A stretch of DNA of 62,628 bases, counting the filler, from Stramenopiles sp. TOSAG23-6 (taxonomy: Eukaryota): NCBI GenBank assembly GCA_900128565.1. It is 10 parts of 10 records of this genome, joined end to end, with 100 filler letters (N's around TTAATTAATTAA, not from the genome) between each part and the next. Parts side by side here need not be neighbours in the genome. Positions count along the whole stretch, not along the records: positions 22,299 to 33,222 come from LT636285.1; 9 more parts are not named here. The stretch is one strand, 5' to 3'. The first letter of the stretch is position 1. The number at the start of each line of letters is the position of its first letter. Positions 9,535 through 59,854 of the stretch are shown one piece after another. Both the position numbers and the translations under genes were made by a program. The notes under the pieces were generated by a model, which was given only the letters and a program-made list of their open reading frames with translations, made no database searches and was not told the DNA's origin.

Positions 9535-9761
9535 TATTTTTCGTATGAAGTTTTGTACCTAACAAATTCTAGTTTTTTTTTTGAAATATAAAAAAAACAA
9601 GTAAACCGATAATTTATTCCATAATCTAGGGGTAATCTTAGGGGTTGTTTTAAATAAATCACTGTAACCATTGGCGACATGTATTCATTAATAAGACGTG
9701 TACATTTCATCGGGTAAAATCTTCGAACGTTGTGTAAAAATCAAGTTATTCCGAAGATCCT

Positions 9762-16727: not shown

Positions 16728-17572
16728 TTAGCGATTAGCTTTTGCAACACGCTCGATTTCATCCTTCTTCTTAATAGAGTAAGCATTGGATGAACCTTTT
16801 GAAGCGTTGATGATTTCGTCAGCGAGGCACTCTGCAACGGTTTTTACATTGCGGAAAGTAGCCTCACGTGCGCCAGTAGCAATTAAGAAAACTGCCTGGC
16901 AAACACGACGAAATGGTGAGACATCGACAGCTTGGCGGCGAACGATACCAGCAGCACCAATACGGGTAGAATCCTCACGTGGTCCAGCGTTGATGATAGC
17001 ATCAACGAGAACTTGGATTGGATTACGGTCAGTGAGCAAGAAAATAATCTCGAACGCATGGCGAACGATGTTAACTGCGAGTTGCTTTTTACCAGCATTG
17101 CGACCGTGAAACATAAGAGCATTAGCAAGGCGCTCAACAATTGGGCACTGAGCTTTGCGGAAACGTTTCACTTGGTAGCGACCACCAGTGTGTGGGAGAT
17201 AAGTTGCGAACTTTGGCTTTACAGCAATGTAGTCCTCTAGCGAGATGTCGTTAATTTCGACGTCATCGAAAGTCCTGTGTTGNGCGAAGTTGAGANAAAA
17301 GTTTAGATGATTGAGTAAATAAGTCTATATGAATATACGTTATATATNTGGGGAAATTGTATACAATGGAAATGTAAACCAAAATACGCTGAAGAGTACT
17401 TCCGCCGCTGGTAGGTGAAACTACCAGAAAGACAGAGAGCGCATTTGGACTATTGAGCACTGCGTATCATAAGCACNCATAATAGTCTCGTTTGCAATAC
17501 GAAAAGTTATGTTTNAGTCATCAAGATTACTTACCATTTGTTGAAAAGCTTGATATCAGCTCCGTCGGCCAT
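16728..17572 (-). CDS. RPS5: 40S ribosomal protein S5 (uS7); exons 17572-17535 and 17274-16728
   Basis: [36 protein letters not shown]; spliced N-terminus IKLFNKWTFDDV. Confidence 0.98.
17275..17534 (-). other. Canonical GT-AG first intron, not a family member
   Basis: aaatg|GTAAGT...ACACAG|gact. Confidence 0.92.
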
Positions 17573-17794: not shown

Positions 17795-18847
17795 CTATGA
17801 ATGATACTTGTATCCGGTATCCGTATCTACCATTTCTGTCATTCTATTTCTTGAATTTCTTGAATTTCGTGTTCTTTTCGTTTTTTTTGTACCTCTAGCA
17901 ACACATCGAGCAACGCAGACTAAAACCAATGCAAGAATCGCAACAACACACTCAAAAATACCAAGTAAAATAAAAACAAATGCAGATTTCTTAAAAAGTT
18001 TCTGGAAGGCATCACTACAAGTTACTTCATCTGTCATAACAGAACCTAATTTAAATGGACCACTTAAGATTTCACCTTTGTTGGCTCCTTCTAGAAGAAA
18101 CTTTTTTCCTTCACCTGGNAGAGGACTGTATTGTGAAAAAATACAAAAAAAAATCGTTAGGTACGAAATTTTCTATGAAAAAAAACTAAGTTTGAAATTC
18201 ATGATGAAAATCTACTAATTGCATGTAAACACATTGGTCATCATATACGGATGTGCTCTATCATATCCACAACAATTAAAGAATTTTTGAGTCTTCATCC
18301 AACTACCATATGTAAATGGATCTTGACATTCTTCGGCAACACAGCCTTTTGGACCAGGTAGTCCNAAATGTAGGTTAATATATTCAATGCTTTTCCTGCT
18401 CAAGGACAATGAAGTTTCGGATGTCTTTTCTTTGCCACTAATTGGTGTATTCAAATCAATTTCATTAGAATAGTTGAGAGAATATACACCGCAAGTAATA
18501 TGGACTATGGAAAACGCAGTAACAAATATGATAAATATATACATTGGCCATCTTGCAGCATTGTGATCCATATCACTTCCGTCAGAGTTTCGCCGGATAG
18601 CCTGTGAGCGCATCTGACAACTACCAACAATTCCACAAAGAGATAAAACAGCCATTGCTAAGGCAATCGAGCCACATATTATCAGAATGTAATCAGGAAG
18701 ACCCAACAAATCTACGTGGTTAAACAAAATGTGACCAGCGAGACTGAGTGCAATTAGACTCAACACAAGCATTATTGACGTTAGAGTAATCAAAAGAAAA
18801 CCTAGACGCCTACCGCAGTTCGTACAACACATTTCAATATTACACAT
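17795..18847 (-). CDS. Tetraspanin; 2 exons
   Basis: Four TM segments and a CCG motif in the large loop. Confidence 0.85.
18126..18215 (-). mobile_element. Family intron with canonical GT-AG ends
   Basis: aatta|GTAGATTTTCAT...GTACCTAAC...CAATACAG|tcct. Confidence 0.85.
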
Positions 18848-24124: not shown

Positions 24125-24500
24125 TTCATAAATGTTATCTATACACTGTATTTTGTTTAGGAACGTAGAAAAAGGAGTTAGAGCACCAAGAAAATGGTAA
24201 ATTTTGAGTACTTAATAGGCTTGTTAATAACAACAGACGCAAAGTACTGCTGCTGACTACAAAGAAAGATTTGATTAGTTAGCACTAAATTTTTCTGGAA
24301 AAATCTGNATTTGGGATTTGATTTCGTGGGCATTTGATTTCGTGGGTGAGAACAAGGTACTATAACCCCAAGGTGAGAAATCGAAATTATACAAAAAAAA
24401 AGGTTGAGGGTACAGTATCCTTTTTTAAAGTTTTTTTTGATCCTTGCGGCTTGTGTATTAACGATATATTAAAAAAGACCGAGGTATAAAACACAGTATC

Positions 24501-25322: not shown

Positions 25323-25390
25323 ATATCATTAAATATTAATAATATATTTGTTTTAGAAAAAGATCAATACTGTATTTTTTTTATTCGTGC

Positions 25391-27366
25391 TTATTTTTTT
25401 ATAGAATACACTACCACTGTAATAATAAAAAGTAAAAAACTAACAAAAATAAAGGGTAGAGAACCAGGAGGAACATATTGCAACAATCCAGAACTATACG
25501 GAGCAAACGATGTATTATTTTGATGGTATTTAGCAGTATGTATGACGTCTGTATTGTATGAATGATACATAAACTATTTTATACAATGAATAAGAAATGA
25601 AAATGTAATATGAATAAAATATTGTAAGTTGTAATTAATGCAAAGTTCACAAATGGCCACCTATGATACCTCCAAAAATACGACCAATTGATGACAATGT
25701 ATTTTGGAAAAATATTTAAAAAAAAATCGTTAGGTACAAAATTTCGTACGAAAAAAAAAAGAAATTCGAAATTAAAAAAATAAAACATACATGCATTTAG
25801 GGAACCAAAAGTTCTTCCTTGTATAGCACGCGGCATTAGCAGTGAACCCATTGCTTTTAATGCAGGTTCGAGTGTTGCTATTGTTGATTTAAATATAATA
25901 ATAAATAATATATGAAGAACTATACAATATTTGTTTAGAGTTCCTACTATTTGTATTTGTGTTTTTTCTATTTTTTCTAGTTGATCATTTGCATCAGGGT
26001 TAGGGTTAGGGGTTTGTAAAAGATGTCTTAAGTTACCATCCATAAAAGAGGCATTTTTATTTCTAAGAGGGTTGGGGTTTACATTATAATGTAAAACACT
26101 AAATGCTAGCAATCCGGAAAACGCGGATAACAATAAAACTAATAATAAAGTATTGTACTTACCATGAACAAGTTCAACTGCTGGATATGTATTGTGAAAA
26201 AATATTTCACAAATTAAAATTTGTTAGGTACAAAATTTCTTACGAAAAATAAATACATTCGAAATTCATGCTGAAAACATAAACACTGCAATACTCACAG
26301 TGGAAAGTATTGAGCTCGCCAATAACAACCATGCAAATTCTGTTGCACTCCAACCAAATGCATCTCTTAGCCAAAGAGGCCAAACAACTTTTATAATTGC
26401 AGTGGCTATTGCTTGAATTACCATTGCAATACATATAATAAGAAATGGTACAAGCTGAAACTGAAATGTTGAAGAGTTTGTTCCTTTTTCAGTTTCAATT
26501 ATATCCTTCTTTCTTAATTTGGATTTCGTGTTTTTCAAGGATGGTGATACAACTAAACTTGATGAATCTATTGCATTATGATTTTCATTTGCTTCTTTTG
26601 TTTTGAAAGAGGTTGGAGAATAGTTCAAAATCCCTACTGTATTTTTTATAACTTCACAGGTTGACGACGATTCAACGTCTTCATTAGTTCCATATAAAGG
26701 TCCAACACTTCTGAAGGCTTTACCCCAATATGTCAAAACAAAAAACCCAAAAAAACAAAAAAATGTGCAAACACTCATAGATATACGATATCGTAAAAGA
26801 ATGTTGTGTTCTCCACAAACTTGTATTAAACAAAAATCCCATAAAGGATATACTCCACGACCAATTAATCTCAGAGCAGTAATCTGAACAACATACGCTG
26901 ATATAATCGCAGATCTATCCTCTCGGGAACTTTGACTAGCTACAAAGCTCATAGTTATTGTCCATAAAGCACTGGAACCTAACCCAATGACAGCAACACC
27001 AATGTATAAACTATTAATATTGAAAGCAAAACCCCGTATAGCACAACCCACAGCACATAATATAGTTGACAATAAACATGCAAGGTATGCACCATGAAAA
27101 TCCATCAACCAGCCATAAAATGGAACAACAAATATTCCTGGAAACTCTCCTACAGATGTTAAATAACCAATATCAGTATCAGTTGCACCCACCTTGTTGT
27201 AGAAGTAAGGTGTCACAGATGAGTGCAAAGAGCCGCCAAATGTTGCAACCCAAATCACTAAGCAGGGTGCAAAAAACTTTGGATCATTCCAGAAAATTGA
27301 AAGAACACGAGATTGAAGAGCAATTGTGGCATATATATAACGCAAAATTACAGACACAAATCTCAT
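25391..27366 (-). CDS. Major facilitator superfamily transporter; probably 4 exons
   Basis: Many TM segments and GWLMDFHG motif-A-like loop; boundaries of the last intron (about 25570-25650) uncertain. Confidence 0.8.
25697..25790 (-). mobile_element. Family intron GT-AT, 94 nt
   Basis: gcat|GTATG...AAATACAT|tgtca gives LNALSSIGRIFG. Confidence 0.88.
26187..26282 (-). mobile_element. Family intron, TT-AT (or GT-AC at 26284-26189)
   Basis: Both registers give SIAVYPAVE. Confidence 0.75.
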
Positions 27367-27628
27367 TTTCCTATCTAAGATTAGATTTAGATTGAATTAT
27401 GATGATTCTGTGAAAACTTGCACAAGAAAAATCGTCCTAATAACAAGAAAAAATGACAGCAAAAAAAATGGTTTGTTCGGTCTGATTAATTTTTTCAGAT
27501 TTCAAAAGTTGGATTTTTCGTGTGGAGGAGCAATTATTTTTGCTCCTGCAGCATATCCGGCCGGAATATTCTCTGTGTGTTCCTGAGTATTCTCCTAATA
27601 TCCGAAGATCGAAATTGGATAAATCGCA

Positions 27629-28477
27629 ATGTCATCAACAAGTAGTTTGCTTGCAACATCATCCAATCGAACAAAAGAATCAAGTGTAACACCAGTGACA
27701 GATCGTGCGAAGCAATGGCGTCAAAATAACCTCGCGTCAAAGCGACCAAATTCTCGTTCGAAAGTCCTTTGTTTTGTTCTTCTTGGATGTGCCGTAGCTG
27801 CTTTTATATATGTTGTACATTCTCATATGGACGTAAAGGTCAGATGGAATACTGGAAAGAGAAGGTATCGTAGCTTTCGTCTAGGAAGAAAGATACCTGG
27901 TGACCATGAAGACAAACTTGACGAACAACTCGAAAAGCTCAAAGAATATCTCGACAATAAAATTTCGGATCATGAAGGGCAGTTAAAGAAACACGAGGAG
28001 TCACTCAGCAGTCATGATTCTACTTTAAAGAGTCATGGTGAAAAATTGAGTACACAAAAAGAAACTTGGCAAGAATGGTTGCGCTCTCAAGTTCAACGTG
28101 AAGTTGAAAAATCAAATAAAAAGAAAGGTGAAACATCGACAACTCATGAAGAAGATGTTAAAGCCATGGATGCTGCTGCTGCCAAACATTTTGAACAAAA
28201 AAAGAAGAAACAGGATAATGATGAGGATGAGGATGAAGAAGATTCAGATGATGAACACTGGAAGGATATGGCAGAGTGGTTGAATGAACCAACACAACAA
28301 CAAAAAAGGGAGGAAGAACATACAGATCCATTTGAGCAATTAATGAATAACGTATTTAACGGTGATGCTGGGATTCGCCATTTTACTATGAAAAGTAGCC
28401 CAATTGGGAGCATTGTGATGCGACATTTTAGTCCAATGATGGGTAATACTCATCATATAACTATACCACTCAACTAA
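27629..28477 (+). CDS. Type II single-pass membrane protein with coiled coil
   Basis: 282-aa ORF, one TM helix, heptad and acidic regions. Confidence 0.7.
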   Translation: MSSTSSLLATSSNRTKESSVTPVTDRAKQWRQNNLASKRPNSRSKVLCFVLLGCAVAAFIYVVHSHMDVKVRWNTGKRRYRSFRLGRKIPGDHEDKLDEQLEKLKEYLDNKISDHEGQLKKHEESLSSHDSTLKSHGEKLSTQKETWQEWLRSQVQREVEKSNKKKGETSTTHEEDVKAMDAAAAKHFEQKKKKQDNDEDEDEEDSDDEHWKDMAEWLNEPTQQQKREEEHTDPFEQLMNNVFNGDAGIRHFTMKSSPIGSIVMRHFSPMMGNTHHITIPLN

Positions 28478-28950
28478 AACTCAACTGAAAAGTTGTTTAT
28501 AACTTAATTTTGTTGCCAGTATCAAAAAATGTATATAATACAATTGAACTGAAAGTCTTCCAATAGATTTACTATAGATTTACTTTATCGTACTGTACGT
28601 GCATAATGTATTCTAATTAGTGAGGGGGGAGAGATCTATAAAACAAAGTAGAAAAAGATGATTTTTTTTTCAATGATTTGGGAAATTAATCAAGTATATT
28701 TCGTGTTTTTTTATTTTTTGAGATTCTTGAGATTCAGCCGCGACTTCAAGTCAAATTAAATTTCGTAAAGATACACTACCAAACACCATCACCATATATT
28801 ATATAGACCTAGCCAAAACTCAGCTCATTTACAAGTTCATTTGTTCCTTTTTGATCGGGGAAGTAATAGTAGCGCACATTCTATAGTCAAAAATACGTTT
28901 TATAGTGTATTACTTGAGTGTGTTGTCCGAATTTAGTTGTAGAGTACAAA

Positions 28951-30111
28951 ATGACTTCACGTTGGTGGTACCAGGTTGATGTGGCACGTGGAGGAAATCA
29001 AATAGTAGCTGATGAAAGCGCTGGAATATTTGAACTACCTGCTGCAGGTGATTATCTTAGAGGTCGTTGTCGTTTGCGCCCATCTTCGTCAAGTAAAAAC
29101 ACAATATTAGTTGGTGAAGCTATATTAATACTTCTTCCGGAAACCTCTTCTTTGATTGACAGTGATAGTCATAATAGTATAGGTATTGCGAGTAGTGGGT
29201 GCGGATGGCGTGCTTTTATATGCAGTTCTTGGCCTTGTCGTGATCAAAGTCAGAAAAGTTTGTGTGATGTTACTACAGATGATGGAAATAATTCATCCTT
29301 GTGTTGCAGCTATGTCAGTTCACGTGTTGAACTTTCATTCTCATGGACTAAAGAACTAATACGTATTTGTCCAAATATAGAAACTAATCAAAGTGGGATT
29401 TGTTGGGGACTAATAAACCCTCCTCCAAACGAAGCAGTTAGTATTGAAATTGAACTTTTCCCTGTTCGACGACAGCAAGCTAGGGCATGGGATAGTGTCT
29501 TGATGTCATCCGTAAAATTTCATTTAATACAAAGTGTACGAAATCTATACATTTGTGTTGGTTCCATTTTGAAATTACCATTTTCACTCCCAGGATATTC
29601 CAGAGTTGTTCGTGCTTCCAGTGTTTCTGGGGACTCTTCATCGTTTGGTCATATTGAAGTATGTAAAGTAACAGCAACAACAATTGTAACAATAACAGTT
29701 GTGGAAGGAGCCACTGTTAACTCAGAGAATAAAATCAAAACAATAGACTGGAGGACACCACATCCTTTACCTATAAAACTTCGTCGTATTGAGTATATAA
29801 AAAATAATACAAATACCTGTATTGCTCAAACAAGTGAAACTAATGAAATGAAAAATGCCACAGAGTTACCAGAAAATATTTCTGAATATACAGCAAAATT
29901 AATTTTATTACACATTTGGCAAAAGTATGCACCGAATAAAGTTGGTACGGTTGATTTTGTACTTCATAAATATAACGGAAAGGAAAAACGATTAGTAATT
30001 GCTGTAGCCAAAAAGTACAAAATATCTACTGTGGCTCTTTTACAAATATATAATGTTGTTTTAAATAATATGAATATTACCACTACCACTACTACTACTA
30101 ATAATACTAAC

Positions 30112-30159
<48 letters not shown>

Positions 30160-30164
30160 AACAA

Positions 30165-30204
<40 letters not shown>

Positions 30205-32618
30205 GATACTGATACTCTATTGAATAATAGCAACATTACTACTGATACTACTACTACTGATAATAATAATAATAATAATAATGATAATAATAATATACCA
30301 ACAGTTGAAGAAACTATGTCATCATTGGTTGGTACACACGCAATCGCATGTGAAAAGCTCGTAGACAATATTCTTCTACCAATATTTCATAATGATTTGA
30401 TGAAAGATTTAAAATTATTTCCAACAAAAGGTATCCTGTTACATGGTCCACCAGGCACTGGAAAATCATCGATAATTCAATCAGCTCTGTCTTGTTGTAG
30501 AAATACCAAAGGTGTTTATGTAGAATTATTCCACGTAGATGGTGCGGATATAAGTGTTGAAACTGGTGCTGGTGATGCCACTGAAGCTTTGTGTGGTGTA
30601 TTTAAATCAGCTAAACATCATGCTGAAATGCCAGGCGCAATTTCTATCATACACATTGAAAGCATTGATATTTTATGCCCCAATCGGGATCGTACTGATG
30701 CGGCTGCTGCACGAAGAGTCGCGACTTTATTAACATTACTTGATGGTATTGAAACCTATCAATCTACATCAAAAAATTCTGATATATTCAACACAAAAAA
30801 TACAAGTTTTGGTATTGTTATTGTTGTAGCCTCCACAAATAATGTATCCGATGTTGATTCTGCTTTAAGAAGACCTGGTCGATTAGATATAGAAATTGCA
30901 CTTGACCCTCCTGGCCCTGATGTATGGTTTCTTCATTCATTTCGAATTTTATTTTTTTTTTCGTACCAACTTTTGTACCTAACAAAACAATGTAAACCAT
31001 TTTTTTTTTTACAATACATGAACGATCTATTCTTTTAGAACATTATTGTAGACATATTCCCGTTGAAGAGGGAATGTTCTCTAACCCCAACCCTAACCAG
31101 AATAAGACAGATAAATTAAAAGAATGTATTGCTGCTACATACAACAAAAATACAAAGAATAAAATAGCTAAAAAGGGAAAAATAGCCGAATTTGCCGCAA
31201 AACATTGTATTGGATATGTTCATGCAGATTTACTTGCACTGGCTAGGGAATTAGCAATGATTTGTGTTTCCCGGGCAGCAGATGCAATTCATAGTACAAA
31301 TAGTACTATAAACAATATTGATTCTCATAGTATACAAAAATCAAATGTTATACTTGCATCTCCTAAAGATCTTCACGATGCTGCAGAAAATGTAGGTGCA
31401 TCACTTCTTCGAGGTCATGCTATACAACCATCCAAGGTACAGTGGGATGTTCGTTTTATTTTTTTCACATCCGAATTTTTTTTTCGTACGCAATTTCGTA
31501 CCTAACAAATGTTTTTTGAAATATTTTTCCAAAATACATGACGTTGGTGGACTATCTAAAGTAAAATTACAATTGAAACAAGCTGTTGAATGGCCACTAC
31601 AACACTCTGATGTTTTTTCTTATATGGGACTTAGACCCTCCAGAGGTGTACTGTTATATGGTCCTCCGGGATGCTGCAAAACTACATTAGTTCGTGCTGC
31701 AGCGTCTGCATCAAATGCTACTTGTACGTTTTCATTTCAATGTTTTATCTAATTTTGTTTTATAGTAAATTTTGTACCTAACGATTTTTTTTAAATATTT
31801 TTTCACAATACATTTCTTTCGCTTTCTGGTGCTCAAATATATTCAGCTTTTGTTGGTGAATCGGAAGCTTGTATACGTCGAGTATTTAAACGTGCACGAT
31901 TGGCTTTACCAGCAATTTTGTTTCTTGATGAACTTGTATGTTTTCATAATTAATTTTTTACTCTGATTTTTTTTTAAATAGAAAATTCCGTACCTAATGA
32001 TTTTTTTTTTAAATATTTTTTCACCTACATGAAGCTTTAGTTGGAAAACGAAGTCAAAGTGGTGGTGATGGCCGTGTTCAAATGAGAATTCTTTCAACAT
32101 TATTAAATGAAATGGATGGCATTGAACAAACTGAAGGTTTACTCATGTACGTTTTCATTACTAATTTCGAATTTACTTTTTTTTCTTACGAAATTTTGTA
32201 CCTAATGAATTTCAAATTTTTGAAATATTTTTCACTATACATTGTGGGTGCAACAAATCGACCTGAAATGATCGATGCAGCTCTAATGCGCCCTGGTCGT
32301 TTCGATCAAGTCATTTATGTTCCACCACCAGATTATTCTGGATCACTAGCCATTCTTCAAATTCATACTAAAAATATTCCAATTGGTGAAGATGTTGATT
32401 TAAAACAAATTGCTCAAATTTGTATTGATAAAAAACTCACTGGAGCAGAGATAAAAAGCATCTGTAAAGAAGCTACGATTTCTGCCCTCAGAGAAAATAT
32501 TAAAGCAGAAAAAGTTTTAATGCGTCATTTTGAAAAAACAGCGAAAGAAATGAATGCAGGAATTTCAGCTCAGGATATTGAATGGTATGAAAATTTTTCT
32601 AATGGAAAATCCAAGTAA
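28951..32618 (+). CDS. Double-AAA ATPase, AFG2/SPATA5L1 (CDC48 family)-like; 6 exons
   Basis: GPPGTGKS, ALRRPGRLD, WDDVGGL, GPPGCCKT, FLDELEAL, IVGATNRP, RPGRFD; continuous only after removing 5 family introns. Confidence 0.92.
30080..30296 (+). repeat. Coding (ACT)n/(AAT)n microsatellite encoding poly-Thr/poly-Asn
   Basis: Directly visible. Confidence 0.95.
30922..31019 (+). mobile_element. Family intron GT-AT, 98 nt
   Basis: cctgat|GTATGG...CAATACAT|gaacga gives PPGPDERSILL. Confidence 0.9.
31449..31539 (+). mobile_element. Family intron GT-AT, 91 nt
   Basis: tgggat|GTTCG...AAATACAT|gacgtt gives VQWDDVGGL. Confidence 0.93.
31724..31813 (+). mobile_element. Family intron GT-AT, 90 nt
   Basis: actt|GTACG...CAATACAT|ttctt gives ATFLSLSGAQIYS. 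Confidence 0.92.
31936..32030 (+). mobile_element. Family intron GT-AT, 95 nt
   Basis: gaactt|GTATG...CCTACAT|gaagct gives Walker B FLDELEAL. Confidence 0.93.
32147..32242 (+). mobile_element. Family intron GT-AT, 96 nt
   Basis: ctcat|GTACG...TATACAT|tgtg gives LLIVGATNRP. Confidence 0.93.
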
Positions 32619-32910
32619 GATGTATGTGTATACATGACACATGCAAAACGACACGAAACCTGGGGGGAACCCGTACCGATTTTGTATACATTTGGTGTAC
32701 TACCAACTCTAATCCTAACCCATCTTATTTAAGTTATTTTGCAAATTCCCAGTAAATATTATTTATATATTAGCATTATGTATTTTATTTATTTATTGTA
32801 AATATATTCTGTATTTTTTGACAATGTATCATTTCTATAAGAGAATTTTTTATAGTTCAAACTATTACTATTAGTCTACAGTCTCTACAATTAAAGGGAT
32901 ATTTTTTTTT

Positions 32911-33180
32911 TCATTTCTGCCAATTTCGAGCAGCCTCGACATCAGAGGATATAATTGAGATATAATCTTCATAGTATACTCTACCAGTTTCTGGATCTTT
33001 AACCAATGAAATCATTTCGTCGAGNTCTTTCTCACGAAATTTTGTTCCCTTTTGAGTCAAAAGTTCACGAAGTGTATCTGTTGCTATCCAGCCTTTATTT
33101 TCTTTATCAATTACTTGAAATGCCTGTAAAAGCAAATTTTCTTGGGCAGGCGTAAACTCACCTGTGGCAATATAAACCAA
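32911..33180 (-). CDS. C-terminal fragment of an EF-hand protein, EFCAB2/DRC8-like
   Basis: LLQAFQVIDKENKGWI...L.Q.G..F...DPETGRVYYEDY. Confidence 0.65.
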   Translation of the reverse strand: MVYIATGEFTPAQENLLLQAFQVIDKENKGWIATDTLRELLTQKGTKFREKXLDEMISLVKDPETGRVYYEDYISIISSDVEAARNWQK

Positions 33181-33376
33181 AGCTATTCCTCCTGGTGTTC
33201 AACTTCACAATTTTTTAAATAANNNNNNNNNNNNNNNNNNNNNNNNNNNNNNNNNNNNNNNNNNNNTTAATTAATTAANNNNNNNNNNNNNNNNNNNNNN
33301 NNNNNNNNNNNNNNNNNNNNNNGTACGAAATTTTGTACCTAACGATTTTTTTTTGAAATATTTTTCCAAAATACAT

Positions 33377-33848
33377 TGTTTTGGATTTTTTCAATTCTTT
33401 CCGTTGCTCCATTACTCATGATTCCTCTCAGTGTTTGTTATACAGTTACATTAAAAAAAAAAAAAAAAACATACATACATACAAAATTCATAAAAAATTC
33501 ATACAAAATTTCATACCTAACAAAATTGTAACAATTTTTTTCATATATTTTTTCACAATACGTAAATTGTCAATTTTAAAAAAAAATCGAAAATTATACA
33601 TTTTATCCGAATTAATTGTTAGTGGATTTATTATATGGACATCTGTGCCATTAGGTATGGCCTTATATCCAGCAACTTCATTTGTTCCATCATCTGCTTT
33701 AGAGACTACATTTCATAACCCTAACCCTACACAAAACCCTAACCCTACTACACAAAACTCTATATTAGCTACAGTAGGTTCAAAATCTGTAGAATTTTCT
33801 GAAAATAAAAATATTGATGTTTTACTTCAATATAATAAAGGATTATAA
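33377..33848 (+). CDS. Sideroflexin C-terminal exons (partial)
   Basis: VPLGMALYP...LE...YNKGL terminus. Confidence 0.8.
33433..33563 (+). mobile_element. Diverged family intron, GT-GT (or GT-AC at 33431-33561)
   Basis: ctcagt|GTTTG...ATACCTAAC...CAATACGT|aaattg. Confidence 0.6.
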
Positions 33849-34175: not shown

Positions 34176-36754
34176 ATGATGATGAAAATACAAAACATTG
34201 TGTTTATTACTTTCACATTTCTGTGTGTTTGTTTTACTGTGAACTCTCTTGGTGTATTTCGTCAAGGAGAGAAACTTACTCATAGTTTATCGCGCGGCCG
34301 CAGTAGCAGCTCTCGCAGTTCATCGCGCAGTAGCAGTAGCAGTAGCAGCTCTCAAAGCCCCGCCTCGCGCCCACACCCCCATTTGCACCCACGCCGCCAT
34401 GGCGGCCGCCCTGTTTCGCGCAGGTCGCCGCGCGTGAGCTCAGACACGGCGATACAGCCTGGAATCTTATTCATTAAAAGCGTGCGTACTAATTTATCGA
34501 ACTGCTGGGAAGGTAGGCATGAAGGTCGATCTTGTGAAGCCTGGATAAGAATCAATGCCCCTCCAGGACGTAATCTACAAAATTTTGAAACTGAAGTACG
34601 CAAGGAATTTAGTAGGGATGGGGATTATACTAGATACATTGGATATGAAATGCCGTATAATACTTTGGATGACTTAATCCATGATTTAACGCACGGCCAT
34701 ATCATAACTGAAGTGCTCGAGAAATCGCAGATGAAGAAAAAAGAAAAATCAAGAACATTGCGTTCAATGAAATTGAAACCTCTAAAATTTATCGAATACC
34801 TTCAGGGTATACGAAATATAGGGATGCCTCTTTTGAGCCCACAAGAGCGGTCTAAAATTCAAGGTTATACATTTAATGACATCTATATAGAGTTCTATAT
34901 AAAGGTACGTTTTTTTCCCTAAACAATTTTGTACCAAAAAAAAAAGAAAAAACATTTGTAGATAATTCAGTACCTAACAATTTGTTTTTAACCAAAAAAA
35001 AAAAAAAATATTTCTCAAAAATTCATGGATTTCAATCAGTAGATGCAATAAAACCATGGATACAGTTACGTGGGCCTGGATCTATAACAATTACAAATAT
35101 TAGTATAACTGGGATTCCAGAAATGGATACAGCTTCAGGAATTGGTAAACAAAAGAGAGATGCGTCAAAAAAAGCAGATGTATACCCGGAAATAGAATAT
35201 TTCAGCTCCAGTGCAGGCAAGATCGTGAAATGGGATGATAAAAAAAACTATAAAAAAAATGTTTCAGCTGCAGCCTTTACAACAAATTTGAAAATAGATT
35301 TTCAAAATTTGGAACATGTTAAAAAATCACTTTCCATTCTTGTTAAATTTTATGATCATGAGAGGGTTGGTAAGGATGACCTTATAACAAGTATGTACTT
35401 TACGCAAAGTATTAAGCAAGAGGTCGTTATTGAATCCGAAATGTGGTCGAATGACATCATCAATAGATCTATAACCCTAAGTAAATCACCTGTAACGGTA
35501 AAAAGTGTAAGCGTAAGTGTAACAGTAAAAATTGATGGTTTTAAATTGCTGAAACCTCGTCCATTCCATTGGGCTTGTAATCAACGTAAAAGAAAAGATT
35601 TTCGTGATTTAACAGTAGCTGAAAAAGAAACACTTTTTGAAGCATTTAATGTTTTAAAAGGGACATCAAGCCAGGCAGAAGATTCACAAAATATTTATGA
35701 TTCCTTTGCAGAAATTCATTCAAATAAGCAGAATCAGATTCAAGCATATGGAACATCAGCCTATCTTCCTTGGCATCGAAAGTTTCTATTTGAAATGGAG
35801 AGTGCTCTTCGTGATTTAAAGACATATCACGGTGTATTTAAATGTATAACATTGCCATATTGGGATTGGGCTGAAGGTTCAGAATTGTGTGAACATGATC
35901 ATTCTAAATGTAAGACTTTGGATCAACATAACCCAGTGCTTAAATTAACTGGTGGGTCAGGAGGAGACCCAAACGATATAATGACGGAACACAACAAAAA
36001 AATAACGAAGCAATTCATAAAAGACGTGAAATCAAAGTGGGGTAATGTAGGTTGTTTGAGTGAAGTTTCTCCTTTCTTCAACTGGTTTGATACCAATGGT
36101 ATATGTGTAATTCGTGGTAGTAATTGGAGTTTGAAAGGAAAAGGATCTAAGCCTGGTGGTGGCGAAGGTGGTGGTGGTGGTGAAGGTGAAGGTGGTGGTG
36201 GTGGCGAAGGTGGTGGTGGTGAAGGCGGTGGTGTGAATCCTGGTCCATTACCTGGAATTTTTGCTCTATATGAAATGATTCACAATAACAAATCATATGG
36301 TCGTGCAGATGGATTTCGTCAAGCAATAGAAACTTTATCTACACAAATACTTCAAGCATTAGGTGGACACATTGGATCGGAATTTGCTGCACATGATCCG
36401 TTATTCTATATGCATTATGCAAATGTTGATCGAATTTGGACTATGTGGAAAGATTGTCATTACGATGCTAGTTATGAGAAATATGATGGTGAAACAAAAA
36501 ATGCGAAATTTGGTACAAAATTAGATAGTAAACTTTTATACAATCCTTATCCGGGTGTACATGCAAAAGACATAATTCCTACTTGGGATAAAAAAAAAAC
36601 AACCATAAGGTATTATACCATTAGTCTAGGTGTGGTATATGTTAATGATGATATAATGCAAGAAACGAAAAGGCTACAAAAGATCCGAGGAGAAAAAATT
36701 CCTAATTTAGTATGTAAAAAATATAAAAAAAAAGGAAAAACATCCTATAATTAG
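34176..36754 (+). CDS. Secreted protein with C2-like and tyrosinase-like domains; 2 exons
   Basis: Signal peptide, ADVYP...DHERVGKDDLI, YLPWHRKFL, LPYWDW, DPLFYMHYANVDRIW. Confidence 0.85.
34905..35026 (+). mobile_element. Family intron GT-AT, 122 nt
   Basis: aaag|GTACG...GTACCTAAC...ATTCAT|ggattt joins two long ORFs in frame. Confidence 0.85.
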
Positions 36755-44442: not shown

Positions 44443-46202
44443 ATTTTTTTTCTCTTGTTGCGGACCTGCATGACAATACTATCAAAAATATTTCATATAT
44501 TTGAAATTCGTTAGGTATACAAAATTGTCTATGAAAAAAAAAATGAAATTAGGGTTAGGGCTACAACTGTACACTACTGTATGATCTGCAATAAATGTAT
44601 TTTGGAAAAATATTTCAAAAAAAAAAAAAAAATTCGTTAGGTACAAAATTTCGTACGAAAAAAATTTCGATTTTTTTGTAAAAAAAAAAAAAAAAAATTA
44701 AAACATACATAACGTTCCTTTTGACCATGTTTTATTTGAAATAGGAAAAGATTTTTTTGTTTTTGAATTTTTTTTCAACTTTATTGTGTTTGAATTTTTT
44801 TTCAACTTTTTTGTGTTTGAAAATATGATTTCCTCTTTTTCTAGCTGAACTTCAGAATTGGTTTTAGTTTTAAGTGGATTTGCAATATGTATTGTGATTT
44901 TTTTTTTTTTGTTAAAAATAATTGTTAGGTACAACATTTCGTACGAAAAAAAAAAAATTTTTTGTTAAAAATAATCGTTAGGTACAACATTTAGAAAATG
45001 TTAGATAAAAAATTTTTAAAAAAAAAAAAAAAAAAAAAAAAAGACAACCAACACACGGTTTCATTCTTCGAAGTAATTCAGTCCTTGGCAATGCTAATTC
45101 GGGTGCATATGTCAATACACGTTCATACTTTGAACCACTCCCAGGAGAAATGCCAAGATAATTACAAGCTTCTTTATGTGTTGGTTTTGATGAGGATATC
45201 TTGGAAAATATATTTTAAAAAAAATTAAAATTTGTTAGGTACGAAATTTCGTATGAAAAAAAAAATATATTTCAAAAAAAATTAAAATTTGTTAGGTACG
45301 AAATTTCGTATGAAAAAAAAAATCATACTCAATATAAAAACATACCTGTTTTGGAAATAGAACATGGTGTAGTACTATAATACACTAATGTTGGTTCAGC
45401 ATTATTTGTCAATGCCATTACTACTTGCATTTGACCAGGTTTGTATTTTGGAAAAATATTTCAAAAAAAATCTAAAAAAAAAAAATCTAAAAAAATTCGT
45501 TAGGTACAAAATTTCGTACGAAAAAAATAAAAATAAATTCAAATTGAAAAAAAAAAGAAAAATGTACAATAAATCTACGTGCGGTGTTTGAACTTTTTCA
45601 GCTCCAATCAACACAGCCACATCTGGTGAAACGCGAACATTTGAAAATCCATTATTTCGTGCACAATTTCGAATGGTATTACGAAAACAAACTAAAAAAC
45701 GTGAAAACTCATCGACACAAAAATCTAAATGAATTGCATTTGAACCACGTTGAACGTGTGTATAATAATTCCTGAGATATGTTTTCCATGATTCAGAATT
45801 TTTACCATCTAAATGTACTTCACTTCTTGCACCAATGACACGTGTTGTTTTTTCTTTATTTCTCTCGGCAAATCGTATCAAATGATACATGAAATTACAC
45901 GGTAACGAAAACTCTTTTGTTGGTGCATACATCATCACACCAGGAATATCATGTAATGTAGTTGTACGCTCGATAGGTAAGACAGATACATTCTCATGAA
46001 TGATTGTAGTACCAAATTTTTTCCGCAACAGTGTTTTCTTTGTATATTTCTTGAGATCGTCAACAAATAAGCCACACGATTTTGTATCGATGCTCATCTT
46101 TTCATTTTTAACTGATGAATTTCTTTGGCGCTTCGGTCTAGATGATATTGATGAACAAATGGCATTTGATTGTTNCCGTTTGTGCATTNCAAGATGGTAC
46201 AC
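44443..46202 (-). CDS. Putative 2OG-Fe(II)/PhyH-like dioxygenase, multi-exon, 3' end truncated, start uncertain
   Basis: QTPHVD (HxD) and distal GTLFIADHT..HAGP after removing family introns. Confidence 0.6.
44595..44708 (-). mobile_element. Family intron GT-AT
   Basis: ttat|GTATG...AAATACAT|ttatt gives GTLFIAD. Confidence 0.85.
44887..45052 (-). mobile_element. Family intron GT-AT with duplicated core
   Basis: ccgtgt|GTTGG...CAATACAT|attgca. Confidence 0.7.
45196..45345 (-). mobile_element. Family intron GT-AT with duplicated core
   Basis: acag|GTATG...CCAAGATAT|cctca; the nearby AG is out of phase. Confidence 0.7.
45441..45567 (-). mobile_element. Family intron GT-AA
   Basis: ttatt|GTACA...AAATACAA|acctggt gives HVDLLPGQMQV. 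Confidence 0.8.
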
Positions 46203-46505: not shown

Positions 46506-49073
46506 ATGATGAGTTCAACTGCTGGATATTCACCAGAATTTCCATCTTTTATGNTTCAAACTTTATCAAAACAACCAAAACCNANAAGTGCATCANCTGC
46601 TGATTTCAAAATTGAAAAAAAGTCGACCACGCCAATATCGAAAACACTGAAAGCTCTACATTTACTCAAGGGATGGCAAAAAGATAAATCACTTTCAGAT
46701 GAAGAATATTTGGTATCAAATAGCCTTCTCCAGCATCCAACTGAAAAAACATCTGTAATGATGACGGACAAAACTGGCAAAGAAAAACTCCGAAGAAAAA
46801 TCTCCTTAGTTTCCAAAAATCAAAAAGAAAAACAAAATGACGTAACCTATACCAATGATGATGATGATGATGAGGAGGAGGAGGAGGAGGAGGAGGATAT
46901 CATCATAATACGAGATTCGGTCTCAGTCACTGAAGAAGTCAAAAACTTTATGAAACTCAAAGGACTATCTAGATTTTTACCTGTTTTTCAAAATATTGGT
47001 ATAATTGAAATGTACGATTTTGTTCATTTCATCTCTCGAGCAATGTTACAAGTTGAGGGACTTGGCAACACTGACATTGAAATTATTATGAACGCTAGAC
47101 TAACACTATTACGTAATATTAAACAACATGCTTCAAATACCGTCATTTCAATGCGTGTATGTTTTATATGAATTTCTAATTTAATTTTTTTTTCATACGA
47201 AATTTGCGTGTGCCTCGATCTCTATCAACGACAAAATCAAAAAATAGTGTTCGGATTGTTGCTGGAGATTTCGTGATTGTTGAAAATGAAAATTTAAATT
47301 TAAATTTAAATTTAAATTTTGTAAAAGGGCAAAAAGAAACAAACAACTGGTCTAGATTTTATTTAGCAAAGGTTAAAAAAGTGCACCATCCGTCATATAA
47401 TAATTGTCAATTACAATTATTTGTTTCAACAACGTTTAATCCCAAAATATTTGTAATGACAAACTGGGTTTTTTTTGAATATTTTTCGAAAATAATTTCT
47501 GTTCAAGTTGAAGTAGACAAAGATTTAGGAGGTATCTTTTATTTTTTTTTTACAAAAAAAATGAATTTTTTTTTTCAATTTCAATGTTTTTTTTCGTACG
47601 AAATTTTGTACCTAACAAATTTTTTTTTAAGAAAATTTTGAAATATTTTCCAAAATACAGGTGCACGTATCTTGGATGAAATACCATTAGATATAGGCTT
47701 AGGAAATTTCTTTTCAAATAAAGATAAAATATTTAAACGTGATAAAGATGACGTTGACACTCTATTTGAAACATCTACATCTAGAGTAAGCCTATTAGAA
47801 TTATCCACAACAATGGCATCAAATGCATATATAAAATTATCTTGTAAATTTGTATTTGGGGTATACAAAGATACNATGTACGTTTTCACAATTAATTTCA
47901 AATTTAATTTTTTTTTTAATAGAGAATTTTGTACCTAACGATTTTTTTTTATTATCCAAAAAAAAAAAAAAAATATTTTTCACAATACATGAATGATAAT
48001 AATGGTATTAGTAAGACAATTGTTAATGTTGCACTAGATGAGTCTTTCTTCAATGAAGAAGATGTAACAGGAGCTATTCATGAAATTCTATGCTTACCAG
48101 GCTTGCAATGCAAAATGACGAATATTTCTCCATATAAATTGTTCGGTACTGAAATGCATAATGACTTAAAAAGTTTAATCGGCAATTCAACTGAGAAAGA
48201 TTTCAATGATTGTTATATAATTACTTATAGTTTTCAAATTGATCCATATTATGTCGAAACTTGGAGACCAAAATCATCACTTACTGTTGAAATGTTGGTT
48301 TCTCATCTTGAGTTTCAATTAGGTGGTTTAGATGTAGGACATTCGTCACAAGAAATTATTTCTGAAACGCATGTATGTTTTATTTTTTTTTTTACATTTT
48401 TTTTTTACAAAAAAATCGAATTTATTTTTTTTTTCGTAAAAAAATTTTGTACCTAACAGATTTTTTTTTTCGTAAAATTTTTTTGAAATATTTTTTCAAA
48501 ATACATGGAAGTGCATCACATTCAAAATCACCAATGCAATTTTTTCGACTACACACAGGACTTAAGTACATCGGTTTGTTTCCAATAATAGTGACATCGA
48601 TAAAGAAACTTCCCTTTGCAGTACAAAAAGGAAATACTGTTGAAGATCTATGTAATACTCACGTGAATCAATTTGATATTGGTTCATTTGTCTATCTCAT
48701 AAACTATACAACTTCTACAAGTCTTGATGATAATGGAAAACATAATGTCCCTTTCATTGCGGGACAAGTGATGAGTGTCAATCGTGGTACGTATAAGCTA
48801 CGTATTTTTGTTTTCGATGAAAAAACTAGGACATATCATCCTATTAAGGAGACATCGCTCGCACCGGAAGAGACATTGACGAAATTTGAGGGCTTTCATA
48901 GGGACCTCAATGGTGATTGGAAATCAGAACACAAAATTTCTCCTCTTGGAGGAGCAGCTTCTATTCCGCGACGAGTGTATTCTGCTGCTATTAAAGAGGT
49001 ATTCAAAGGAATGACAAAATCAAACTTTGATAACTTAAGTATTAAAGTTGGTAAACCAGTCACAAAAAATTGA
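46506..49073 (+). CDS. SAM-domain-containing hypothetical protein; about 5 exons
   Basis: FMKLKGLSRFLPVF..IGI..M.D SAM-like motif; ORFs joined by family introns. Confidence 0.65.
47532..47660 (+). mobile_element. Family intron with canonical GT-AG ends
   Basis: ggag|GTATCTTTT...AAATACAG|gtgca. Confidence 0.88.
47878..47990 (+). mobile_element. Family intron GT-AT
   Basis: at|GTACG...CAATACAT|gaat, frame consistent. Confidence 0.85.
48373..48506 (+). mobile_element. Family intron GT-AT
   Basis: cat|GTATG...AAATACAT|gga, frame consistent. Confidence 0.85.
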
Positions 49074-52094: not shown

Positions 52095-55000
52095 TCATAA
52101 AGTATCCAAAAAATGTAATTGCGATTTGTCTCTTTTAGATTCAGCAGTGGATATAATTTCCTTGCGATCTGTATTGTTTTGATTTCTTGTTTTTTCTGTA
52201 ACAACTGCAGTTTTTACGATAGAAAATACATCATGTAATAATGCAAGAATTGACATAAACAATGCAACAATCATAGAATGAAAAGCATGTCCTGTCTTTG
52301 AGTCAAAAGTAGGTGATGTTGCTCTAGATTTCAATATGTCAAAATACGTTGAAATACAAAAGAAAACGATGACTAAATTCCCGACAAATTGCAAATTTGC
52401 ATTGATTTGTATTGCTTTCAGCTTTAATTTCGAAAAAGATTTGGTAAATGATATATAGTATTTGATGATGAGTGACATAATCATCATAATCATAAAAATT
52501 TCAATTATAATTATCTCAAAACTACCTTCAAAAACACCTGGGAAAATATTATATGAAGAAAAACAAGTTGTTTCATCTTGGTAATGTAAACAAGATTTCC
52601 ACATACCAATATACATCCGCAACTCAATGCTATAGCTGATACGTTGCCAAATTCCATTTATAGGTATCTCACCTAAATCAGTTGATTGTCCTACGATGTA
52701 GCAGATAAACATAACGCCATCAAATACAATGCTTAAAGTTTCATTTCTTTCAAATTTCGGAGTAGCATACTTACATAATACAACAAGTAAAATAATTGTG
52801 ATGAACAAAAACAAATAGACTGCAATTCGACCAACTATATTGTACCGGCCGTTGTCTCCTACTAAGCTATCTTTTCTTGCTGTATCTGAGCATGTTCCAT
52901 TTGCATAGCAAAACTGACCTATCTTACAGTTTGTTTTTGTATCATTTGCATGTGATGTAATTACTTTGTTTTTGCACAAACAATTGTCTTTATCCACGTA
53001 AAACTTCCCTAATCCTGGGTCACATTGAAATCCGAATCTACATGAATATAATGTAACGCCATTCATTCGAATAGGATAAAAAGCAGTTTCTATCGGTGGA
53101 TAAATTGTACATATTTTTGTACTTGTCCCATATGCGAAATGAGCACATTTCAACTCCAAACGCCTACATGTCTCGTAACACTCAAATAGTGTTGTCTCAA
53201 CGGGTGTAGCATAAGTACTCGTCCCTGGTGGATAACTTGTATTTTCTTGTATCATTTCACAATTTACAATGGTGTTTTGAGCGCGCGAAGGAAAAATATA
53301 CGAAACTGTTAGTGAAACATTCAAAGTTTTCTGTGTATCTTGTACACTCACACCTCTATCATACAACTCACAATATTTAGTTTCAGCGATATAAACCATT
53401 GCAGCACAAAATGAGTTGTCAATACATTTTGTATAACAATCATTAACCGATTGAATACCAGAGTGTCTAATCAGTAAATTTTTATATGTAGAATGATTGT
53501 TAAATTCACAATTTTGATACTGTACGGCATCCTTATCATTAACAAATTCATCAGTCTTCAACCCTTTACAATTATCCAACGATATGGAAACATGTTCATG
53601 TTCATGTTCTTCTCCATTTTCAGCAGAACATACTCCATCATGACACCACTTTGACTTTCCACAAGGAGTATCATTCAATTGTCCTAGACCGGCAAAAGCA
53701 GACATGGAACTACACCGATTTCCAATTCCGCATTTAAAATGACATAAATCCTTGGTTATACCACAAAAATCACCCACAGAATCCAAATTATCACAAAATG
53801 ATAATTCACAGACTCCACTTACACACATACCAATTCGTGTTTGAGATCCTACGTTCTGTGTACATGGCGTTCCTAATGTAAAGTATCCATTATCAGTACA
53901 ACAATCGCTACCAAAGATAGATTCAGGAGAACAATCTTTTCCGTCTTCTAATGTACAATTGTTACAATATTTGCATGAATTAGACTTATCCATACACTCA
54001 CATTCATCACCTCCTGATATAACACCGTCACCACAAACTGGTTTGTAAAGCTCTACTTGTTTTCCAACAATACATTTTTTCAAATTTCTTTCAAGAGTTT
54101 TACATGTTTTGTGAAAAAAAAATTTAGTTAAAAAAATTGTTAGGTACAAAATTTCGTATGAAAAAAAAAAAAATTAGAAATTCATATCAAACGTACATAT
54201 ATACTTTCTATTCCCTTTATGGAATTGATACACGTGATCTATTTGGAGACGATAGCCATAATCCATTATACCACCGATGTTTCCTGCTTTTCCCAATGGC
54301 CGATCATATATTGTGAATTTNGTTTTTGTAAAATTCGTTAGGTACGAAATTTCGTACGTAAAAAAAATAGGTAAAAAATTGAAAAAAAAAACGTACCCCG
54401 TTTTTAGGATCAAATAAATGTTTACCACCAAGACCATGACCTACTTCGTGAGCAAATGTTATCCAAGACAATTCTCCTTTTGTGACATTCGTGGCACCAA
54501 CATTCAGTATTTCGCACAGGCCTCCAGTATATGCGATTTTGTAAAAATATTTCAAAAAAAAAAACTAAAATTTGTTAGGTACAAATTTTTTTACCAAAAA
54601 AAAAAAATAAATTCGATTTTTTTGTAAAAAAAAAATAAAACGCACATGCGATACCTAAAGTTCTATCTATGTTATTATTAAGTTCAAAAATATGATACAA
54701 AGCATATTCTGAAGATACTTTTGTCGCCGCATTTACAACTCTCAATTTGGAAATTTGATCACCTAATTTTTTTGAATTTGTATTGTCATGTATTTTGGAA
54801 AAATATTTGAAAATTTACCAAAAAAAAAAAATTGTTAGGTACAAAATTTTTATAAAAAAAAAAGTTCAATTTCAAATTAAATAAAAAAATAAACATAAAA
54901 CATACATATGAAACATGTACTGTTAAATAATCCACTTTTTTGATTTTAAGCACAATATCAAATTGTTGCTTATATATTTGATTTGTCTTCTCAACAATTG

Positions 55001-58341: not shown

Positions 58342-58375
<34 letters not shown>

Positions 58376-58379
58376 ATAC

Positions 58380-59820: not shown

Positions 59821-59854
<34 letters not shown>

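Follow-up and report, generated by a model that had tools for sequence, protein, structure and literature searches.

Candidate spliceosomal introns with predominantly GT..AT ends form a repeated, introner-like family in genes of a marine stramenopile

Genes in an assembly of Stramenopiles sp. TOSAG23-6 (GenBank GCA_900128565.1) are interrupted by a repeated family of short segments, which are best explained as real spliceosomal introns that start with GT, end with AT and belong to an introner-like family; we put the probability of this reading at about 0.75. The analysis covered one stretch of 62,628 nucleotides (nt), hereafter the window, which consists of parts of ten records joined with filler. 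It contains a two-domain AAA+ ATPase gene (28951-32618, plus strand) whose frame is interrupted five times within 1.3 kb. What is shown is that proteins which are conserved and otherwise colinear are broken up by the segments, and that one segment is missing from an RNA contig. The terminal AG of introns, which the catalytic core of the spliceosome recognises through conserved contacts, is among the most constant signals of eukaryotic genes.

Excision of the five segments yielded a two-domain AAA+ ATPase colinear with archaeal CDC48. The exons and introns of the gene were located as follows, where D1 and D2 are the two AAA domains.

28951..30921, plus strand: exon 1, an open reading frame (ORF) with a putative start codon, the N-terminal region, a low-complexity N/T run and D1
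30922..31019, plus strand: intron 1, 98 nt, subfamily B, phase 0, starts with GTATGG and ends with ATACAT; exon end AT
31020..31448, plus strand: exon 2, D1 lid and linker, with an in-frame telomere-like CCCCAACCCTAA
31449..31539, plus strand: intron 2, 91 nt, subfamily A, phase 0, starts with GTTCGT and ends with ATACAT; exon end AT
31540..31723, plus strand: exon 3, start of D2 with Walker A GPPGCCKT; Pfam AAA positions 1-24
31724..31813, plus strand: intron 3, 90 nt, subfamily B, phase 1; exon end TT
31814..31935, plus strand: exon 4, D2 as far as Walker B FLDEL; Pfam AAA positions 28-66
31936..32030, plus strand: intron 4, 95 nt, subfamily B, phase 0; exon end CTT; Leu with GT..AT ends, His with both cuts two bases upstream
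32031..32146, plus strand: exon 5, D2 from EALVGKR to TEGLL, placed by alignment to an archaeal protein (P0028); Pfam AAA positions 67-105 by subtraction
32147..32242, plus strand: intron 5, 96 nt, subfamily B, phase 2; removal seen in RNA
32243..32618, plus strand: exon 6, end of D2, AAA lid and stop codon; Pfam AAA positions 106-130, AAA_lid_3 at E = 6.5e-10

Each of the five junctions leaves exactly one open frame. The spliced product was 37.5% identical to the archaeal CDC48-type protein P0028 over query residues 6-601 (596 residues), and junctions 2-5 were free of gaps. Junction 1 (PPGPD/ERSILLEHY, the slash marking the cut) also aligned to P0028 without a gap, and junction 2 (VQWD/DVGGL) aligned to VRWSDIGGL. 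Residues 495-651 of the exon 1 translation matched the Pfam AAA profile at E = 9.8e-21, and the same profile was tiled by exons 3, 4 and 6, which leaves its positions 67-105 for the 38-codon exon 5. With two AAA domains and a AAA lid, the protein is a type II AAA+ ATPase, placed here at the level of the CDC48/AFG2/NVL group and not of a subfamily. In D1, Walker A reads GPPGTGKS and Walker B is degenerate (IHIESID). The atypical motifs lie at 30560-30740 and 31640-31690 on the plus strand: the D1 motif, with IES, lacks DE, and the GCCKT of the D2 Walker A has C for the usual G. Either each domain is half-disabled or these are errors in the single-cell assembly.

As had been predicted, no AG stands at the required position of the five 3' ends. 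When the region from -40 to +30 was scanned, AG was found at +19 for intron 1, at +22 for intron 2 and at +4, +10, +23 and +29 for intron 4, and none was found for introns 3 and 5; no AG lay at a distance from the required junction that is divisible by 3.

Small shares of the words of the gene were present in five runs of seawater metatranscriptomes, which belong to two studies; four of the runs were mapped to the N-free stretch 24309-33222. In the poly(A) run X2, one contig joined 32143 to 32240 and skipped 96 nt (32144-32239, equivalent to 32147-32242). This is the join of exons 5 and 6 as predicted; three letters (CAT) fit either side of it, so that its register is ambiguous. After the shorter side of the joint stand 17 loose letters, which resemble sequencing adapter. 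Removal was thus seen in one RNA contig for one of the five ATPase introns, and that of the other four is deduced from protein colinearity. Three further joints on the same stretch link copies of the repeat and were set aside. In run X1, 927 contigs were placed, of which 326 fit two places; they pile up on intron cores and diverge at loose ends around 25697-25760. This suggests that many more copies of the family exist outside the window in the sampled populations, and the summed contig depth is not to be read as a count.

The recurring unit is about 90-135 nt long and consists of GTAYGTTTT, a T-rich stretch often with TTCGAA, TTCGTACGAAATTTTGTACCTAAC, a T-rich tract and GAAATATTTTTCCAAAATACAT or TTTTTCACAATACAT; the consensus of the family was GTAYGTTTT...TTCGTACGAAATTTTGTACCTAAC...U-rich...AAAATACAT. 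Its eight-base box GTACCTAA was counted 44 times in the window, whereas 1.21 occurrences were expected and none of 100 shuffles gave more than 4. By our own count there are about 40 distinct copies in the 62.6 kb, including a few with a diverged box, and their hosts are genes for a kinase, a WD40 protein, a transporter, a metalloprotease, an LRR protein and others. When 30 candidates were cut at the family positions, the frame was open over 30 codons on either side in 25; in a 26th (477, minus strand) it fails only as the upstream stretch enters the preceding intron. The resulting junction peptides are plausible, for example YFKHNG/IVHRDIKPAN, GHTSWVT/SVSFFSSG and HEVGHGLGGKH...KNG/DRPLG. Counts given below use the 28 introns with established ends; left out of the 30 candidates were those at 44932, 58634 and 56252, whose ends were not established, and that at 55133, which abuts an N gap (all minus strand). 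For the intron at 25737 (minus strand), phase 1 was picked by the appearance of the protein, though phase 2 had been flagged as open; this intron is not informative about the register.

All 28 copies lie in sense orientation to their genes, and the three phases were represented by 9, 10 and 7 of 26 introns. Among 26 aligned copies, the median pairwise identity was 0.66 (range 0.48-0.86), and the likeness extends over the full length of the intron. Two subfamilies were distinguished, one with a GTATGTTTTATT... start and a CCAAAATACAT end, the other with a GTACGTTTTCAT(T/C)ATGAATTTCG... start and a TCACAATACAT end. The bases at +10 (A/C) and -8 (A/C) were linked accordingly (11/1/1/7, Fisher p = 7.7e-4). 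Because variants about 90 nt apart travel together, the copies appear to descend from master copies, and the family is introner-like and not merely a set of strong signals. It shares with introners the many similar copies at unrelated gene positions and the division into families.

The borders of the introns were also inspected. Direct repeats at the borders measured 0 nt in five of the 28 introns, 1 nt in four, 2 nt in twelve, 3 nt in four, and 4, 5 and 7 nt in one each; a target-site duplication of fixed length was not found among them, nine introns having repeats of 0 or 1 nt. A 3-nt ATG target-site duplication was considered and rejected, as the exon-end AT and the G at exon +1 are unlinked (9/9/5/5, own count). 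The only terminal inverted repeat able to pair is GTAT/ATAC (4 nt), and C at +4 in 12 of the 28 introns is matched by G at -6 in none, i.e. there is no compensation. A hairpin joining the ends, as in the non-conventional introns of euglenids and Amoebophrya, was rejected as well: eight introns folded no better than shuffled sequences (z = -1.12, -1.78, -0.07, -0.39, -1.48, +0.70, -1.09 and -0.12). Not all introners have inverted repeats or duplications, according to the sections cited here of a paper on them (PMC11282704).

Besides those of the ATPase gene, four family introns bear on the exact ends.

34905..35026, plus strand: intron in a neighbouring gene, 122 nt; exon end AAAG, intron end TTCAT; Lys or Asn according to register, at a site that is not conserved
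45441..45567, minus strand: family intron, 127 nt; GT..AA in the family register
47532..47660, plus strand: family intron, 129 nt; ordinary GT..AG, with an exon end that is also AG
18126..18215, minus strand: family intron, 90 nt, subfamily B; starts with GTAGAT and ends with ACAG; exon end TA

In the family register, the terminal pairs were GT-AT in 23 introns, GT-AG in two, and GT-AA, GA-AT and TT-AT in one each. The last two bases were hence AT in 25, AA in one and the AG of U2-type introns in two. The end ACAG was found in three members at the same alignment column, at 18126-18215 (18164, minus strand), 47532-47660 (47608, plus strand) and 55094-55209 (55133, minus strand; beside a gap and outside the 28), and one member ends with ACAA. 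The 3' rule is roughly A-Y-A-[U>>G,A]. The original prediction had missed that the introns form one introner-like family with two subfamilies, and with it the AG and AA ends, the GA and TT starts and a probable ordinary intron in a uS7 gene, which is described below.

It had correctly warned that many junctions slide. The exon ends with AT in 18 of the 28 introns, against a background dinucleotide frequency of 0.10; most junctions can therefore be moved by two bases and then resemble AT-AC introns. In this -2 register, 16 introns read AT-AC, and the rest show nine other pairs, including TT-AC (three), AG-TC, GG-AT and TA-AC. Among the five ATPase introns, introns 1, 2 and 5 give identical mRNA under GT..AT or the -2 register. 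For intron 5, the CAT repeat makes the registers CA..TA, AT..AC, TG..CA and GT..AT indistinguishable. Intron 3 gives ACT/TTT under GT..AT and ACA/TTT under -2, which is Thr-Phe both ways, so that only intron 4 separates the registers at the protein level.

Three lines of evidence favour GT..AT. The first is the set of termini described above. The second is conservation, whose edges fall at G+1 and T-1, i.e. at the GT..AT cuts. At the 5' edge, exon positions -2 and -1 were A in 21 and T in 23 introns, and intron positions +1, +2 and +3 were G in 27, T in 27 and A in 26; at the 3' edge, intron positions -4 to -1 were A in 26, C in 25, A in 28 and T in 25, exon +1 was G in 14, and the positions beyond were unremarkable. 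The third is a residue at intron 4, where GT..AT gives the Walker B sequence FLDELEAL and the -2 register gives FLDEHEAL, as had been stated beforehand. Among 237 aligned AAA domains of 119 homologues, the residue after the DE of Walker B was I in 199, L in 32, M in four, V in one, F in one and H in none. These observations support the claim that the ATPase locus uses GT..AT rather than AT..AC, although its wording, that the locus fixes the register, was too strong. GT..AT is the best supported reading of the register, and the junction seen in RNA would fit either.

Two further claims about single introns held when re-examined: the exon before 34905-35026 ends in AAAG and the intron in TTCAT, which makes the -2 register AG..TC, and a -1 (TG..CA) register at 45567..45441 creates an in-frame stop. 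Shifts of -4, -1, +1, +2, +3 and +4 each gave in-frame stops in 1-4 introns; the unshifted register is stop-free by construction, as the frames were chosen with it. Joined sequences that would separate the registers are GAACTTGAAGCT (GT..AT) or GAACATGAAGCT (-2) across 31936-32030, ATAAAGGGATTT or ATAAATGGATTT across 34905-35026, and AAAAACGGGGATCGG or AAAAACGATGATCGG across 54396..54306 on the minus strand.

Several points weigh against this interpretation. The sole joint that removes an intron has a shorter side of 22 letters and comes from a metatranscriptome contig. No contig spans introns 1-4 in joined form, and no RNA covers a register-informative junction, since 34905-35026 lies outside 24309-33222. 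Mismatch-free unspliced contigs were found at the boundary of intron 1 and exon 2 (30952-31117, X2) and at that of exon 3 and intron 3 (31542-31783, X3); these could be pre-mRNA or DNA carry-over. No stops arose from shifts of -2 (nine introns in which the mRNA changes) or -3 (20 introns), and zero stops at -2 mean that stops alone do not exclude AT..AC. Two of the 28 introns do not start with GT in the family register (GA at 6797, TT at 26282), and with sliding they could be taken for AT-AC or GT-AC. The exon-end AT seen in 18 of 28 is also what an AT-AC system would produce. The original prediction of five introns within 1.3 kb of highly conserved sequence was right in number and span, but the non-canonical Walker A of D2 and the degenerate Walker B of D1 slightly weaken its premise of conservation; constraint in D2 may be relaxed, given the odd GPPGCCKT. 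The whole case is built on one 62.6-kb window and two short related contigs (L001 and L003). A terminal G+1/U-1 pair is not known to support efficient splicing of the U2 type.

With regard to the mechanism, we infer the exact GT..AT cuts, the branch site, a U2-type spliceosome that recognises the last base in a relaxed or altered way, and an origin by copy-and-paste. The 5' site would be yeast-like, G+1 U A Y G U U U U, and in agreement with a U2-type site, G+1 was found in 27, T+2 in 27, A+3 in 26, G+5 in 23 and T+6 in 27 of the 28 introns. A near-invariant internal box, UUCGUACGAAAUUUUGUACCUAAC, contains CUAAC as the likely branch site, and the predicted branch point is the second A of CUAAC in the GUACCUAAC box. 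Such a box was present in 27 of the 28, its A preceded the 3' end by a median of 37 nt, and a U-rich tract follows; in single-box introns the 3' end was 31-59 nt past the GTACCTAA box. After the U-rich tract would come a 3' box, (C)CAAAAUACAU or UCACAAUACAU, whose final U is followed by the cut. The GU...AU ends would thereby retain the usual Y-A at -3/-2, the last base being U (25/28) and rarely G (2/28) or A (1/28), and a major-type spliceosome would accept or prefer U as the last intron base. The order and spacing of the signals are U2-like, the introns fold no better than shuffled sequences and their ends do not pair; for these reasons a major-type spliceosome is favoured. The family would have multiplied by copy-and-paste, like introners, always in sense to genes and without a target-site duplication of fixed length. 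The odds appear even for a broader proposal, namely that in this MAST-3-like host the default 3' splice site is AU and not AG, that nearly every intron is a copy of a mobile intron of about 100 nt ending in ACAU, and that recognition of the last base in the second step (G+1/U-1), and probably U2AF-type readers of the 3' end, have been remodelled.

An unlikely alternative that is compatible with GT-AT ends is an expanded and transformed minor (U12-type) class, as in Physarum, whose small nuclear RNAs (snRNAs) co-evolved to new boxes. GT-AT is a recognised rare U12 subtype and makes up 17% of the non-canonical U12 introns in the Physarum data cited (10.1101/2020.10.12.336362). The related Blastocystis keeps all four minor snRNAs and seven minor-specific proteins. 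The rigid 5' and internal boxes of the family would suit this class, as would the coexistence of at least one ordinary GTAAGT...CAG intron with other signals; the 5' site GTATGTTTT matches GTATCCTTT at 7 of 9 positions, and two members have GTATCTTTT. However, the U12-type 5' site [AG]TATCCTT was not found in the 28 introns, where the defining CC at +5/+6 is replaced by G in 23 (A in three, C in two) and T in 27, respectively. Likewise, the box is TACCTAAC and not TCCTTAAC; between it and the 3' end, 31-59 nt further on (a median of 37 nt when counted from the branch-like A), there is a U-rich tract, an arrangement like that of U2-type introns. The family also accounts for nearly all introns seen in the window, which would be unprecedented for minor introns, and an Rfam scan of the window found no family at gathering score, including no snRNA.

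Rather improbable is a second explanation, in which the cuts lie two bases upstream, most introns are AT...AC (AUGUAYGUUUU...AAUAC) with A+1/C-1 chemistry, and the copies without an exon-end AT are exceptions, decayed or idiosyncratic. It would account for the exon-end AT and for the 16 introns readable as AT-AC, the GA-starting intron 6797-6887 slides to a clean AT-AC, and the nine informative introns contain no in-frame stop under it; in addition, Blastocystis, of a related lineage, has hundreds of minor introns that are mostly AT-AC, as far as the cited part of that work describes them (10.1101/2022.09.24.509304). On the other hand, it requires ten different terminal pairs among 28 introns. 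The first two intron bases would be the least conserved (21/28 and 23/28), below +3 to +11, whereas the first two exon bases would be near-invariant (A in 28/28, T in 25/28) in all three phases. It also places His at intron 4, where all 237 AAA domains have I, L, M, V or F. GT..AT therefore remains the preferred register.

It is very improbable that the segments are lost at the DNA level, in the manner of eliminated sequences or excising transposons, or that they represent polymorphic insertions, in which case the RNA contig would derive from a copy without the insert. They are short repeated elements with direct repeats of 2-7 nt at their borders, a truncated antisense copy lies in a minus-strand ORF at about 10640-10700, and the joined form might also exist in DNA runs. 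Yet all 28 full copies are in sense to the only open frame; a 5' site, a branch-like box and a U-tract follow in spliceosomal order; the direct repeats are absent or a single base in nine of 28; and spliced and unspliced forms occur together in RNA libraries. Finally, the idea that these are artefacts of a fragmentary assembly, or dead genes, from which no splicing rule can be read, can be practically dismissed. In its favour, N runs number 61 in the window and come with linker-like fillers, and one block is duplicated (58.2-59.7 and 59.7-61.2 kb). Against it, about 40 sites show these signals in the same order, and the length of the segment restores the frame every time; kindred copies are found in L001 and L003, two independent contigs from metagenomes; and RNA confirms one junction.

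These two contigs came from a search of public metagenome DNA with the family pattern, in which four stretches matched and two contained family-type introns, too few for a stop-codon test of the register. The introns lie at about 60-180 in L001 and at 644-747 (minus strand) in L003, the latter being GT..AT, 104 nt long and leaving one open frame. The family is thus not confined to this assembly. The pattern was absent from the viral contigs searched.

Some copies depart from the common form. Truncated core copies without splice ends were noted at about 10640-10700 and at 9530-9600 (both plus strand); the former is antisense within the minus-strand ORF mentioned above, is translated as ...SLGTEFRTKK... 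and stands beside a WW-like segment, and the latter lies directly beyond the end of the 7705-9534 ORF. They hint at movement at the DNA level. In the introns 579-736, 44887-45045 and 45196-45345 (all minus strand), the internal box module is doubled in tandem. At 54531-54645 (minus strand), a 7-nt direct repeat, ATCGCAT, stands at the exon end and the intron end, and at this very place the 3' box deviates, with AAAATCGCAT instead of the consensus AAAATACAT; this looks like a duplication or conversion event.

Judging from reading frame and signals, the family is probably accompanied by one or more ordinary GT-AG introns.

17275..17534, minus strand: probable ordinary intron, 260 nt, of the uS7 (RPS5) gene; GTAAGT...CACAG, predicted junction that restores the frame

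The layout of this gene is ATG...AAATG/GTAAGT...(260 nt)...CACAG/GACTTTCGATGAC, which restores a continuous protein, and the intron has no family boxes. Exon 2 matched uS7 chains at E = 2e-90. The intron carries TGATGA near its 5' end and might host a small RNA. Further GT-AG introns were sought in the window, but each candidate was either spurious or could not be verified; the figures of about 40 family introns and at least 1 ordinary intron are no census.

The introns are not recognised in public gene models. Exon 6 found its best database match in P0001, a protein of 531 amino acids (aa) with 99% identity, whose source name is 'GSMAST32...assembled CDS' and which is evidently a public gene model of the same ATPase locus. 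P0001 skips or reads through all five junctions (...VQWDVRFIFFTSEFFFLKLQ..., ...FLDELVSLVGKR..., ...LLMYVFITNFEFTFFSYEILYLMNFKFLKYFSLYIVGATNRP...), and in P0121, the model of the neighbouring transporter, the intron 25790..25697 is read as protein. Both models are mis-built, with intron sequence taken for protein or conserved parts of exons left out. A protein search with the metalloprotease exon, in the range of 367-1169 aa, gave no match.

The source name of P0001 indicates that the host is most likely a MAST-3 (Nanomonadea) marine stramenopile; the DNA of the window is AT-rich (GC 0.24-0.39) and eukaryotic. Single-cell assemblies of MAST-3 had 2,694-3,289 predicted genes in 19-21 Mb, and in the text of that MAST-3/MAST-4 study, supplements aside, the terms splice, non-canonical and GT-AG are absent (PMC5778133). 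The main text of a paper on an Incisomonas metagenome contains no occurrence of intron or splice (PMC12614181), and full-text literature searches on MAST-3, Nanomonadea and stramenopile GT-AT introns found no published description of such introns.

Other features of the window were noted in passing. The following telomere-like (CCCTAA)2 units were located.

31085-31096, 33719-33748, 61526-61543 and 61657-61668, plus strand: telomere-like units
25994-26011, 44549-44560, 57414-57425 and 58792-58803, minus strand: telomere-like units

Units of this kind numbered 12 in the window, where 0.14 were expected. Those within ORFs that were checked lie on the sense strand and are translated in frame as NPNPN, and that of the AAA protein falls in a stretch without a counterpart in the archaeal homologue. 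A single ORF of 1909 aa occupies 37105-42834 on the plus strand; its GC is raised (0.37-0.39), its GC skew is strongly positive, and by eye the C-terminal half shows helicase-like motifs such as Helitron-type elements have. The blocks 58194-59716 and 59673-61195 are near-identical, have the same ORFs and the same two introns, and are separated by N runs with TTAATTAATTAA filler; they are probably an assembly duplication.

If the broader proposal on AU as the default 3' splice site is true, the family would be the first intron set in which GT-AT predominates and a protist parallel, of independent origin, to the introns of the tunicate Fritillaria; it could also explain the small published MAST-3 single-cell gene sets. 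A free-living marine protist with mostly AU-ending introns would offer, beside one tunicate lineage, a second natural experiment, independent of the first, on how recognition of the 3' end can change, here tied to the spread of a mobile intron. As gene finders limited to GT-AG mis-build such genes, functional inventories of this abundant uncultured group are likely to be incomplete until they are re-annotated with GT...AT introns. The larger point would be that a marine stramenopile carries a prolific, two-branched family of AU-ending introns that defeats standard annotation.

Among known systems, yeast-type U2 introns follow the scheme GUAUGU...UACUAAC...YAG. The present family resembles them in its GUAYGU 5' site, its near-invariant UAC(C)UAAC-like box and its Y-A at -3/-2, and differs in that the last base is U and not G, the box has one extra C and the introns are copies of one repeat. 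With U12-type introns, including those of Physarum, it shares GT-AT as a documented subtype, rigid boxes and the coexistence with ordinary introns (10.1101/2020.10.12.336362, 10.1101/2022.09.24.509304). Unlike in the U12-type introns described there, which have TCCTTAAC or TTTGA at 9-13 nt, no CC is found at +5/+6, and TACCTAAC lies further from the 3' end (median 37 nt) and is accompanied by a U-rich tract. In Amoebophrya, a marine protist with more than 60% non-canonical introns, the introns are likewise repeated elements with direct repeats of 3-5 nt that overlap the borders and make the cut ambiguous (PMC7789003). As described in the cited sections of that work, they have no preferred terminal dinucleotides, and inverted repeats of 8-20 nt form hairpins, whereas the present family is dominated by a single pair (GT-AT, 23/28), has linear signals and folds no better than shuffled sequences.

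Introners of Micromonas, Aureococcus, dinoflagellates and fungi are similar in being numerous, alike, short and inserted in sense, with splice signals and subfamilies (PMC11282704). The known introners covered there have canonical GT-AG ends, and many have target-site duplications of fixed length and terminal inverted repeats; the present family has GT-AT ends, border repeats of 0-7 nt and no paired-end structure. In Fritillaria tunicates, 95% of introns escape GT/AG, and divergent U2AF paralogues recognise the odd 3' ends (PMC13326754). As in Fritillaria borealis and its relatives, the 3' ends include AT, and the introns are restricted to the lineage and regarded as descendants of mobile elements; there, a modified major spliceosome is used and most introns of the genome lie outside GT/AG (PMC13326754, PMC11282704). 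In the Fritillaria introns so described, AG-AC and AG-AT prevail and the 5' end is odd too, whereas introns of the present family begin with an ordinary GTAYGT and break the rule in their last base alone. Moreover, Fritillaria is a chordate, whereas the host here is a stramenopile protist in which the whole intron belongs to one conserved family of about 100 nt.

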